The notes below the pieces were generated by a model. It was not told the DNA's origin. It saw only the letters and a list, made by a program, of their open reading frames with translations, and ran no database searches. Positions 3,829 to 15,158 of a DNA stretch of 22,811 nucleotides are shown one piece after another; the stretch's first letter is position 1, and each line of letters opens with the position of its first letter. Where the stretch lies: NCBI RefSeq assembly GCF_006345805.1, contig NW_021836762.1, positions 1 through 22,811 on the forward strand. The letters are read 5' to 3'. Position numbers and translations under genes: made by a program. This stretch comes from Octopus sinensis (Eukaryota).

Positions 3829-4426
3829 AAGGCGGCGAGCTGGCAGAAACGTTAGCACGCCGGGCGAAATGCTTAGCGGCATTTCGTCTGCCGTTACGTT
3901 GTGAGTTCAAATTCCGCCGAGGTCGACTTTGCCTTTCATCCTTTCGGGGTCGATAACTTAAGTACCAGTTACGCACTGGGGTCGATGTAATCGACTTAAT
4001 ACCTTTGTCTGTCCTTGTTTGTCCCCCTCTGTGTTTAGCCCCTTGTGGGTAATAAAGAAATAGGTATTTCGTTTGTCTTTACGTTCTGAGTTCAAACTCC
4101 GCCGAGGTCGACTTTGCCTTTCATCCTTTCGGGGTAGATTAAATAAGTACCAGTTACTCACTGAGGTCGATATAATCGACTTAATCCGTTTGTCTGTCCT
4201 TGTTTGTCCTCTCTGTCTTTAGACCCTTGTGTGTAGTAAAGAAATAGGTATTTCGTCTGCCGTTACGTTCTGAGTTCAAATTCCGCCGAGCTCGACTTTG
4301 CTTTTCATCCTTTCGGGGGCGATAAATTAAGTACCTGTTACGTACTGGGGGTCTATGTAATCGACTTAATCCCTTTGTTCCTGTTTCTTCCCTCTATGTT
4401 TAGCCCTTGTGAGCAATAAAGAAATA
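3829..4426 (+). mobile_element. Family A SINE trimer, tail type 2 (...tttagccccttgtgggtaataaagaaata): one full unit plus two headless ~184-bp units
   Basis: Units begin at 3829, 4063 and 4247, each with B box gagttcaaa(t/c)tcc. Possible TSD agaaata at 3822-3828 and 4427-4433. Confidence 0.92.
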
Positions 4427-11419: not shown

Positions 11420-13368
11420 TTCCGTTGAAATTTGGTCAGCAGTTGAACAGTGAGGACGTGAGCTTTGAGCTCCGTCCTAAAAAGAAAAAAGAACAAAAAC
11501 AGAGAAGGTTGTCGAGGTACGTGATTTTGTTTGTTGTGAGCTGGGCATAATTTATTGCGTGCGAATTATTTTTTCAGTAAATTGTGCCCCGCTCTGGGAC
11601 AATTTCGTCTGCTCTCGGCGACTGTTGTTTTTGTGTATTGAAAATTATTGGATTCATTTTTGGTGGGGCGTATCCTCGCCCGAATAGAACCTGTTGCTGT
11701 TGCAGCTAACGTTGGCTGTATTGTGTTTGAACTACCGGACAACAAAAAAAGATTTATGACAAGAAACCTATCCACATTAGGCCGGAATAACCTGTTGGCC
11801 AATTGGATTTTTTGCTGTGTGAACTGTTTCTTATTTTCCGTTTATCCTTCCTGATTTTTTTCTTCCCTGTTGAACTATTAATTAATTTTTGGACTTACAT
11901 TTTTTAAAAATTTCTTTTTTACATTCTCTTTGAACTTTGAACTGTTTTTTGGAACTTTTAAGACTTTCTTTTTTGCACATGGCAAAAACAAACGGTGCCG
12001 CTGTTTCGGAGTGGGAGGTGGTGCCACTCAAACAGTGGATTAAAGATCTTGAGAAGAGGACGGTGGTACTGCGGACCTATTCTAGGTCGTGTGGTGCCAT
12101 CGCCCTCTTCGACAAGAGCGTGACACAGAGAGAGAGAGAGATTGGCAGACTATCTGCCAACTATAAAATTTATTTCACGGGGGACCAAATTTGCAACGGT
12201 TTGGTTGCTGTTTGGTACCCCCGAGGAAGCTGGCAGATTTGCCAGCGAGCCCCTTGAGGGAAAAGAAATTTTGTTCCTCCCCACTTATTGTGGGAGGAAG
12301 ATAAGAAGAGCCTGGGTGTGCGGGCTGCCCCCGGGCACGGGGGCGGGATGGATCGAGAAGACCATCCGGCGAGGCCTGGGGGATAGCGGGCCCAGGCTTT
12401 TGAGTGTGAAGATTACTCCCACGGTCGACTGGGAGGGGTCAAAATGCAACTTTGACCCTGTGGACCCCGGTAGCCGTGGGAGACATGATGTTTCCGAATT
12501 GCCTAAAAATGGCGCCCCTCCAAGTGTCACCTGTACCTGGAGCCTGGCCATATCAAAAGGAACTGTCCAGGGGGCCGTAGTGGGGCCCTGGAGCATGAGA
12601 AAGAGAAGGTTCCCGCCGCTCCCTTATTGGATGGGGAGACGGTGGAAGTCGTGGAGGAAGTTGCAACAATAGTTGCTCACCAAAGAATGTTCAGGCGGCG
12701 GAGGAGGGTAGCGATCCCCCGCGTCTGTCGACGCAGCCCCTTGCTCCCGCAGCCTCAAAAAGAAAGAGGAAAAAGAGAAGCAGTGGACGGTCGACGGATG
12801 TTCCTGGGCCGCCGACGGAGCCGCAGGTGGGATGTGTGCCACCTGCGGATAGGGCTCCGTCAGTGGGAAGTGTGCCACTGACGGAGCAGTGTGAGGTCCC
12901 TTTCTGTGAAGAAGAGGTGCTTGTCCTCCTTGACCACGAGGGAGGGACGGTGAGTAAATTTTTGGACGGCTTTGACTGACCGAGAACGTGTTCACTCGGT
13001 CTGCTCAAGTAGTCTGATATGGCCTCCGCAGGTGGCTGCGGAGGTAGTAACGGAAAAAATTTTGTCAAAGGTCACAGTAACCTTTGACAAGGAAGAATTT
13101 GCTTTCCTCTTTGCAGGCCCCGACTTGTCGATGCAGAGTTGTCTGCAGGCAGCAAGTCACTTGGCTTGGGGGACCTGACAAAGAGAATTCTTGTAAGAAA
13201 ATTTTGTATTGTTGTAAGAAACTTTGTATTCGAGGGTTTGTCGGTCGGTGGGCACCGACATCCCTCTCATCCGTATCATTTTGTTTCATTTCATCTCATC
13301 TTGTCCATGTCCAGCCCACAAGCTTCTCTCTGTATGCTGCCCTTGTGGCAAATTAAATGAAATAAAGA
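11420..13368 (+). mobile_element. ORF1-only non-autonomous non-LTR retroelement (L1/Tx1-like gag; HAL1-like architecture)
   Basis: DPE-like aggacgtg at 11453-11460, ~550 nt 5' UTR, a GC-rich disrupted ORF with a zinc knuckle, and ~190 nt 3' UTR ending gcccttgtggcaaattaaatgaaataaagaa. No endonuclease or RT sequence. 5' boundary approximate. Confidence 0.7.
11979..13178 (+). pseudogene. Frameshifted gag-like ORF1 (putative RRM region plus CCHC zinc knuckle)
   Basis: ATG at 11979 (MAKTNGAAVSEWEVVP...RTVVLRTY), a frameshift at the (AG)n run near 12125-12140 into ...FGTPEEAGRFASEPL...LPTYCGRKIRRAWVCGLPPG, and a second shift into RPSKCHLYLEPGHIKRNCP (12525-12566; CX2CX4HX4C with C2 changed to Y). 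Probable stop at 13176-13178. Confidence 0.72.
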
Positions 13369-13504
13369 AGCTTGCTTTCTAACCACATGGTTCCGAGTTC
13401 AGTTCCACTGCATGGCACCTTGGGTAAGTATGTTCTACTATAGCCTCGGGCCGACCAAAGCCTTGTGAGTGGATTTGGTAGACGGAAACTAAATGAAGCC
13501 CGTC

Positions 13505-13564
<60 letters not shown>

Positions 13565-14086: not shown

Positions 14087-14174
14087 CGGTGAAATATGTA
14101 TTAATATTTGGAAGGCTTTTTTAGGCGTAGTTCACAAGTGGATCGCTGGCCTTGGTACGGGACCCCGGAATCTA

Positions 14175-14399
14175 ATATTTTTTTCTCTTCTACTCTAGGT
14201 ACAAGGCCCGAAATTTTGGGAGAGGGGTCCAGTCGATTAGATCGACCCCAGTACGCAACTGGTACTTAATTTATCGAGCCCGAAAGGACTAAAAGCAAAG
14301 TTGACCTCGGCGGAATTTGAACTCATAACGTAACGGCAGACGAAATACTGCTGAGCATTTCGCCCGGCGTGTTAACGTTTCTGCCAGCTCGCCGCTTTA
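14175..14399 (-). mobile_element. Full-length family A SINE, tail type 1, with TSD
   Basis: Collinear with 1-218. Flanked by cccggaatcta (14164-14174) and cccagaatcta (14400-14410). Confidence 0.92.
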
Positions 14400-14568
14400 C
14401 CCAGAATCTATTATAGCCCAAGATATTCTATATGGTACTTTTCTGTTTTTATAAATTGTGCGTATGGTTGGCTTGGGAGGTAGATTTGCTATACTTTTCA
14501 TACTTAAATGAGTTTATATGTGTAGAATATCTTTGTTTAAAATTTATAGTAGATCCAACTTAGTGGTT

Positions 14569-15158
14569 ATTCTTTTATTCTTTTCTTTCATTCTTTTATT
14601 GATTTCAGTCATCTGACTGCGGCCATGATGACGCATCAACTTTAGTCGAACAAATCGACTCCAGGACGTATTCTTTGTAAGCCTAATACTTATTCTATTG
14701 CTCTCTTTTGCTGAACCGCTAAGTTACAGGGACGTAAGCACACTAACATCGGTTGTCGGGCGATGATGGTGGGGACAAACACAACCACACACACAGGCAG
14801 AAACGTTAGCAAGCCGGGCGAAATGCGTAGCCGTATTTCATCTGTCGTTCCGTTGTGAGTTCAGATTCCGCCGAGGTCGACTTTGCCTTTCATCCTTTCG
14901 GGGTCGATAAATAAGGTACCAGTTACGCACTGGAGTTGATATAATCGACTTAATCCGTTTGTCTGTCCTTGTTTGTCCCCTCTATGTTTAGCCCCTTGTG
15001 GGTAATATATATATATATATACGGTGGGCTTCTTTCAGTTTCCGTCTACCAAATCCACTCACAAGGCTTTGGTTGGCCCAATGTGCCGTGCAGTGCGACT
15101 GAACCCGAAACCATGTGTTTGGGAAGGAAGCATCTTACCATACAGCCACGCCTGCGCC
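14569..15158 (-). mobile_element. Family B SINE interrupted by a family A SINE
   Basis: The 3' half at 14569-14795 and 5' half at 15007-15158 (ends cttaccatacagccacgcctgcgcc) are reverse complements of 9592-9976. Confidence 0.9.
14796..15006 (+). mobile_element. Family A SINE, tail type 2, nested in the internal microsatellite of the family B SINE
   Basis: ggcagaaacgttagc...tttagccccttgtgggtaat matches 3842-4053. Confidence 0.92.

Follow-up and report, generated by a model that had tools for sequence, protein, structure and literature searches.

Perfect local hairpins, probably maintained by selection, in the coding region of an ORF1-only retrotransposon family of Octopus sinensis

The window analysed here is a stretch of 22,811 nt of Octopus sinensis DNA (assembly GCF_006345805.1, contig NW_021836762.1, positions 1 to 22,811); all coordinates refer to it and all features described lie on its forward strand. 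The segment at 11442–13364 is almost certainly a disrupted copy of a non-LTR retrotransposon that is abundant and ORF1-only (HAL1-like), here called family A. Repeat matches, together with a 5' start and a 3' end shared with other copies, identify it as a near full-length, decayed element. Out of 2353 first-look candidates in the 2.72-Gb genome, the 40 that were scored gave 67 matches to this segment, and the best 30 of these matches are 76–88% identical to the window copy. Its 5' start agrees with that of five other copies (L004, L007, L008, L011 and L020) and its 3' end reads ...ATGAAATA. It differs from the family majority by 47 substitutions in 1278 nt and, relative to that majority, its ORF1 frame is broken by indels near 12135, 12441, 12512, 12663 and 12971; open frames of 400–416 codons are present in other family-A copies. 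A T-rich 5'UTR (11442–11978), which is free of hairpin excess (2 stems of at least 6 bp versus 1.9 in shuffles), precedes the frameshifted ORF1 remnant (11979–13178), which bears the hairpin array and includes an RRM-like region, a CCHC knuckle and a basic disordered part. The zinc-knuckle remnant (12525–12566) matches zf-CCHC with E = 0.061; in an intact family-A copy this match is weak and under the Pfam cut-off (E = 0.0099). Atlas matches of ORF1 fall in CCHC and ZCCHC3-RBD clusters.

Family-A ORF1 is 27% identical to the ORF1 of the autonomous partner described below (E = 2e-20), and no ORF2 was found within the element behind the family-A ORF in the 40 loci read; a single ORF homologous to LINE ORF1, with no ORF2, is the organization of HAL1-like ORF1-only elements. 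Searching with the ORF1 protein returned one relative only (60% identity), the O. sinensis uncharacterised protein LOC115225585 (P0001), a family-A member annotated as a host protein. In a protein search for copies, 150 of 9948 first-look candidates were scored, and copies were sorted by eye into 13 groups (DNA identity 68–97%). Several features of these copies are noted in passing. Their family-specific 5' ends often bear the motifs CTTCCGG and GCGCATG, which we take to resemble ETS and NRF1 sites, and which suggest that internal Pol II promoters may be present there. Five copies (L006, L009, L016, L022 and L026) have a common 3'UTR deletion (window-equivalent 13197–13328), and identical sequence lies next to all five. 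C-terminal halves of ORF1 have been exchanged between families, as in L061, which combines an L065-like N-terminus with an L071-like C-terminus, and L007 carries a template-switch-like inverted duplication that begins at a hairpin (window-equivalent 13062–13127). Elsewhere in the window, a 185-nt unit is present in three tandem copies (3881–4426), with similar repeats at about 14150–14400 and 14810–14990. The 13 matches of an Rfam scan are all far under the gathering score, and most fall on an (AT)n run. Contigs from four sequencing runs presumed to be RNA match parts of the element, and contigs of this kind cannot reveal strand, level or transcription; in them, 11482–11553 and 13229–13369 are deeper than the ORF, possibly on account of a related element or a host transcript.

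Family-A relatives share a single insertion site, in the head of a SINE, and carry a target duplication of 15–16 bp. Among the 153 copies gathered, the target motif was found at the 3' end of 99 of the 152 with room for it and upstream of 89 of 151; it is on both sides of 63 copies, which measure 1512–2584 nt (median 2079 nt). Such site-specific insertion with target duplication is a trait of the Tx1 clade. The window contains a single target motif, at 13365, and the upstream SINE head and 5' target duplication present in other copies are absent from the window copy. This 3' copy of the target sequence (13365–13379), duplicated on two sides in other copies, lies at the start of the body of the interrupted host repeat (13365–13505), a sequence which also follows 71 of the 99 copies ending at the target. 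The repeat is presumably a tRNA-type SINE; no tRNA gene was called within the window. Family-A elements end in GAAATA directly at the target, with no poly(A) tail, and carry near this end a conserved 4-bp stem-loop (13338–13350) common to family B and the autonomous partner. Its variants are TGCC-N5-GGCA, TGTC-N5-GACA and GGCC-N5-GGCC, and it is likely to be a signal for the partner's reverse transcriptase. At several loci (L098:1-8001, L107, L109, L087 and L096), family B, family A and the autonomous partner are stacked head to tail at the SINE target, with one copy of the target sequence between neighbours.

The autonomous partner is a 5.45-kb L1/Tx1-type element with the same target, duplication and 3' end as family A; loci with the matching 3' end and insertion signature are L107, L108, L110, L111, L124 and L125. 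It encodes an ORF1 of 488 codons and an ORF2 of about 1130 aa with APE, RVT_1 and zf-RVT domains, in which Pfam found no RNase H domain. The best PDB match of ORF2 is human L1 ORF2p (E = 3e-65) and its matches among solved structures are to L1 and R2 only, while a protein search for named relatives gave one unnamed protein and no named Tx1 sequence. Tx1-clade elements have an ORF2 with an APE endonuclease, a reverse transcriptase (RT) and a C-terminal zinc motif, and an ORF1 with a CCHC knuckle. The partner has all of these, and fits a Tx1-type LINE in an assignment made from domains and targeting rather than from an RT phylogeny. A second ORF1-only group, family B (L177–L206), encodes about 410 aa at 31% identity to family A. 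The group has this target and this 3' stem-loop too, and its hairpin excess is weaker and variable. Related autonomous families (L112–L116 and L121; endonuclease identity 58–59%) are not bounded by the SINE target, and their ORF2s display a hairpin excess. A large number of RT ORFs with equal scores, reaching about 880 aa (L127–L156), are located on unplaced contigs such as C1794, C8702 and C12603 and not on chromosomes; they could represent a clustered family or foreign DNA.

A first-pass annotation of the sequence had listed 15 hairpins in and around ORF1, all of which are present at their coordinates with perfect stems as long as stated or longer. An imperfect 5' hairpin of 6 + 5 bp (11453–11478) is common to most family copies reaching that far. 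The N-terminal array (12009–12592), the positions of which are common to sister families and show compensatory changes, includes the listed stems at 12009–12029 (6 bp), 12229–12246 (7 bp), 12327–12344 (7 bp), 12374–12397 (7 bp), 12436–12458 (8 bp) and 12566–12592 (7 bp), as well as 12274–12299, where the stem is of 8 bp instead of the 7 listed. Two hairpins of 10 and 13 bp (12821–12848 and 12854–12887) have some of the longest stems. They are followed by C-terminal hairpins of 7, 9, 11 and 6 bp (12978–13147, including those listed at 12978–13001, 13023–13044 and 13062–13090) and by a 3'UTR hairpin (13232–13266, listed as 5 + 7 bp). The hairpin at 13316–13348, whose loop is of 19 nt, lacks conservation among copies, and among aligned copies the stems at 12009, 12184 and 12327 are perfect in the window copy only.

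Perfect stems with loops of 3–12 nt were counted in region 12009–13348 and in dinucleotide shuffles of it. There are 19 stems of at least 6 bp versus 3.0 in shuffles, 12 versus 0.8 of at least 7 bp and 3 versus 0.01 of at least 10 bp; none of 200 global dinucleotide shuffles and none of 200 local ones reached the observed density. No excess was found in the 5'UTR or in either flank of the window copy. This comparison to shuffles and the presence of compensatory substitutions in other copies, reported below, are the two points on which the first-pass annotation had made its proposal depend, and both came out in its favour. Its wording can be narrowed in several respects. The array is dense, but 'tiled almost end to end' is too strong since perfect hairpins cover only 481 of 1340 nt (36%). 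The unpaired fraction of four intact family copies lies just 3–7 points under that of shuffles, with all four bases decreased to this extent and G and C not singled out, so that the excess is one of stem perfection rather than of total pairing. The stems, described as largely unrelated in sequence, are not all so: those at 12821–12848 and 12854–12887 have a common GTGGGA.GTGTGCCAC core and resemble tandem copies in which the two arms have since changed together. As to tandem repetition as a cause of hairpins, only a 20-nt duplication was found (13187–13231). Finally, the structure does overlie a protein-coding frame, that of ORF1, but this frame is broken in the window copy itself.

The excess extends across the lineage. 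At stems of at least 6 bp, all 153 family-A copies are above their own local shuffles, and for 15 of 16 family-A ORF pieces the observed number was reached by at most 5 of 150 synonymous-codon shuffles; stems of at least 7 bp total 727 in the 153 copies versus 85 in shuffles. It is confined to the GC-rich ORF (GC of the hairpin region 0.55–0.58), being weak or absent in UTRs, and the longest stem is of 13 bp. Family B has 39 versus 8 stems of at least 7 bp in 30 copies. Its youngest subfamily has the same target and 3' end but no excess (folding z = +1.8; 1–2 stems), which means that mobilisation can do without dense hairpins. Most autonomous ORF1s and ORF2s, including those of families off this target, display a weaker excess than family A (in the autonomous element of L107, 7 versus 0.8 and 8 versus 2.2 stems in its ORFs). 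Among 19 chromosomal RT ORFs of other LINEs, 4 are above shuffles at stems of at least 7 bp and 15 are without excess, one of these 15 having a z of −5.8 for sense folding. Family A thus shows the trait at its strongest, though not exclusively. RT ORFs of another LINE family (L160 and L158) show a structure excess (16 versus 3.4 stems; sense folding z −5.8). Hairpin positions are common within family A, where 34–87 of 119 pairs were predicted independently in 8 other groups, while 6 of 7 tests for positional conservation with family B or partner ORF1s were null and one was borderline. The loops of 82 distinct stems reveal no common motif.

Covariation was assessed with pairs defined on the window's family alone and then read in other families. 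Compensatory Watson–Crick changes across relatives, as expected of a conserved sense-RNA structure, are present: 19 compensated pair types were found in 17 of 111 pairs, compared to 8.6 ± 2.3 in decoys matched for base and codon position (reached in 0 of 5000). A separate count in 15 copies gave 16 of 71 pairs compensated (6 of 500 shuffles) and 40 compensated cells versus 21.5 in shuffles (0 of 500), although 'further pair types' in this count were not above shuffles (45 versus 46.3; 407 of 500). Pair 12232/12243 of the hairpin at 12229–12246, for instance, is G-C, A-T, C-G or T-A in different families, and each time the 5'-arm change is non-synonymous and the 3'-arm change synonymous. In helices retained among nine family majorities, pairing is kept in 71 of the 94 double changes listed, which are partly redundant and not independent events.

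The substitutions were placed on a tree of 144 of the 153 copies (9 were dropped as fragments, outliers or gapped), with parsimony states and a midpoint root; the alignment was restricted to the N-terminal 621 nt because C-terminal halves have been swapped between families. On internal branches 78 substitutions hit stems versus 114 expected (46 versus 66 when synonymous changes only are considered), and 54 stem gains were found versus 28 expected. Terminal branches look neutral in both respects (hits 181 versus 186, gains 61 versus 58). Double changes on internal branches number 5 versus 0.7 expected, one of them on a branch of just 4 substitutions. The ratio of synonymous to non-synonymous changes is 430/334 on internal and 444/962 on terminal branches: the ORF1 protein is conserved on internal branches only, which indicates purifying selection while the element replicates, as in HAL1-like elements. 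Since internal branches are rich in synonymous changes, ORF1p is presumably useful in cis. After insertion, copies decay neutrally. Selection on pairing is likely; it appears to act by removing stem breaks, and some of the double changes may have been supplied by template switching.

Ordinary RNA stems tolerate G-U pairs. No such tolerance over A-C was found on the sense strand of family A. G-T and A-C are similarly frequent in the decoy-matched covariation set (26 versus 28) and in retained helices (44 versus 36), as well as in A1 (82 versus 67 cells, 28 versus 25 pairs); residence in intact helices is 3.4 for G-T versus 5.5 for A-C, and changes that create sense G-U show the same degree of depletion as changes that create A-C (0.56 versus 0.69). 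Local hairpins are predicted on both strands, as in templates of the Q-beta type. Disallowing G-U pairs hardly alters the folding excess, and folding of the antisense strand is nearly as good as that of the sense strand. In L061 the folding excess is −94 kcal/mol for the sense strand, −94 for the antisense strand and −93 when G-U pairs are disallowed. Where the first-pass annotation had proposed 'RNA or ssDNA' structure, the data favour ssDNA or both strands, there being no G-U preference and no sense/antisense asymmetry of this kind. Accepted substitutions are better predicted by DNA energies than by RNA-sense energies (2dLL 45.7 versus 27.9), and the latter add nothing to the former. The absence of a G-U preference, combined with folding of both strands, points to strict Watson–Crick pairing on both strands or in DNA, and not to ordinary mRNA structure. 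Two observations do favour the sense strand: in 3 of 5 family-A ORFs the sense folding excess is larger than the antisense one by 13–18 kcal/mol, and the DNA-sense predictor beats DNA-antisense (45.7 versus 34.2; the two are correlated at 0.86).

What such hairpins might do is suggested by the way the element would be copied. The partner's ORF2p would copy it in trans, by target-primed reverse transcription starting from the shared 3' stem-loop. To our knowledge, how template RNA is removed and the second strand synthesized in LINEs without RNase H is still unsettled. As Pfam found no RNase H in the partner's ORF2, the GC-rich RNA:cDNA hybrid would have to be displaced for second-strand synthesis. 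Short, strict Watson–Crick hairpins would close on RNA and cDNA alike and thereby ease this displacement. A G-U pair on one strand corresponds to an A-C mismatch on the other, so that strict pairing would favour strand release, much as in Q-beta replicase templates. We tentatively favour this reading, that the hairpins help the RNA template and cDNA to come apart during retrotransposition. The mobility of young family-B elements with few hairpins, the sense over antisense excess and the better performance of DNA-sense over DNA-antisense energies all count against a clean version of it. The wider proposition, that this octopus L1/Tx1-type lineage carries a strand-symmetric, Watson–Crick-only hairpin code to which amino acids change in step and which parts RNA from cDNA without RNase H, is rather doubtful. 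If true, it would represent the Q-beta principle in a retrotransposon, at its densest in ORF1-only parasites competing for one SINE target.

It is also conceivable, if unlikely, that the hairpins are selected as structures of the sense RNA only, with a role in ORF1p binding or packaging, in stability or in translation control, or in concealing the RNA by local folding from piRNA, Dicer or ADAR. Confinement of the excess to the ORF, the purifying and compensatory pattern on internal branches and the somewhat stronger sense folding in 3 of 5 family-A ORFs are what this would lead one to expect, and G-U cells do occur and stems do stop at 13 bp. However, sense G-U is depleted like A-C, G-T is no more persistent than A-C, and RNA-sense energies contribute nothing over DNA energies. 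The 82 stems have no evident loop motif in common, nor do the positions coincide with those of family B or partner ORF1s (6 of 7 tests null).

Stems that are Watson–Crick-only and strand-symmetric, at positions independent in each lineage, could alternatively originate from mutation, if the shared reverse transcriptase perfected quasi-palindromes by fold-back template switching with protein selection as the sole filter, leaving functionless hairpins. It would also explain why family A, family B and autonomous elements all have an excess. A single template switch can both make and mend a stem (PMC8794818), and the double change on a branch of 4 substitutions may be of this sort. One of 133 copies (L011) has an exact loop inversion at 12436–12458, which shows that template switching does occur on stems. 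We nevertheless consider a purely mutational origin improbable. Among 2957 private mutations stem-perfecting ones are not in significant excess (98 versus 88 ± 9), nor are perfecting clusters (1 versus 3.2 among 296); synonymous gains are even across the arms (15 versus 16) and mostly single-site; and UTRs have little or no excess. On short branches stem breaks number 26 versus 42 expected, a deficit of 38%, while only 2 of 214 site-branches had an internal mismatch fixed, so that repair alone is too slow to hide the missing breaks. Hairpin-shaped deletions were likewise not enriched among 89 deletions (5 versus 6.9 for whole hairpins, 10 versus 9.7 inside hairpins), with a weak excess of deletions at hairpin edges (18 versus 11.1; 9 of 300).

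Another role that strict pairing in DNA could serve is to protect the cDNA, while it is single-stranded after first-strand synthesis and before the second strand is made, from nucleases or deaminases of the host. The best fit of DNA energies would be in line with it, as would the slight excess of A-C over G-T in intact helices (A-C being G-T on the cDNA). In stems of at least 5 bp, T>C changes at A-T pairs are not depleted (24 versus 22.7) and A>G changes are (28 versus 46.7), but this T>C effect fades at stems of at least 6 bp (9 versus 12). Because depletion of G>A is as strong as that of C>T (0.51 versus 0.50), DNA-antisense energies predict worse than DNA-sense and about half of the bases remain unpaired, we regard shielding as very unlikely. 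Chance, base composition or an amino-acid by-product, for which the GC-rich region and the three window stems perfect only in the window copy could be cited, is to all intents refuted, unless the tree-based nulls are biased, by the dinucleotide shuffles (0 of 200), by the excess over synonymous-codon shuffles, by compensatory changes and by depletion at synonymous sites.

Related elements with measurable, apparently selected, G-U-intolerant coding hairpins, together with a young partner family that has a single defined target and whose ORF2 frames are long and open, make a role of template structure directly testable by synonymous recoding. In family A, nucleic-acid pairing would shape the sequence of a protein. 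The element itself is not the undescribed system that had been suspected from its sequence, being an ORF1-only retrotransposon of the L1/Tx1 group: ORF1-only LINE derivatives and target-specific Tx1 elements are already known, and these families may already be in Repbase or Dfam. The literature searched, outside of which lay Repbase, Dfam and most subscription journals, yielded no account of this group with its SINE target, nor of coding hairpins under selection in a Tx1 or L1 element. The structural constraint on coding hairpins is apparently undescribed, and the stacking of numerous ORF1-only families with their partner at one SINE site is an apparently unreported ecology.

HAL1 elements encode ORF1p only, depend on an autonomous LINE and arose several times (PMC5753468); family A is also ORF1-only and has an autonomous LINE partner. 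The HAL1s described there are mammalian L1 derivatives, whereas family A resides in a non-mammalian host and, lacking both a mammalian L1 origin and a poly(A) tail, is not HAL1 proper. It further differs in its site specificity with a fixed 15–16 bp duplication, in the 3' stem-loop held in common with its partner, in the low ORF1 identity to that partner (27%) and in its coding hairpins. Tx1 families are reported to insert in transposons, snRNA genes and microsatellites (PMC4494074). The octopus group resembles Tx1-clade LINEs (Tx1L, Keno, Kibi, Koshi and Tx1-Mar) in the APE-RT-zf-RVT ORF2 of the partner, in the CCHC ORF1 and in insertion into one site of a multicopy element; it differs in its target, since a SINE head is absent from the targets described in that source, and in the many ORF1-only satellite families stacked in tandem at the site. 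A list of L1-Tx1 families exists for Octopus vulgaris, in a main text without SINE-target or hairpin detail (PMC13282606).

As for the hairpins, the coding excess in folding over codon-preserving shuffles recalls GORS of RNA viruses (PMC3695492), although family A is no virus and its stems are perfect, very local and without G-U preference. Hairpins made by template switching likewise have perfect Watson–Crick stems, apparent one-step compensatory changes and rare loop inversions; those described are in RNA genes under host DNA replication (PMC8794818), whereas here the terminal branches, which are the record of host replication, show no excess. In Q-beta replicase templates and ssRNA phages, local hairpins throughout the coding sequence are described as keeping template and product apart (PMC4652763, PMC6913131). 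There the replication is RNA-RNA and the hybrid of a retrotransposon is RNA-DNA, and the rule of 'fewer unpaired GC' is not clearly reflected in family copies, where all four bases are less often unpaired. The likeness is one of how the hairpins would work only.
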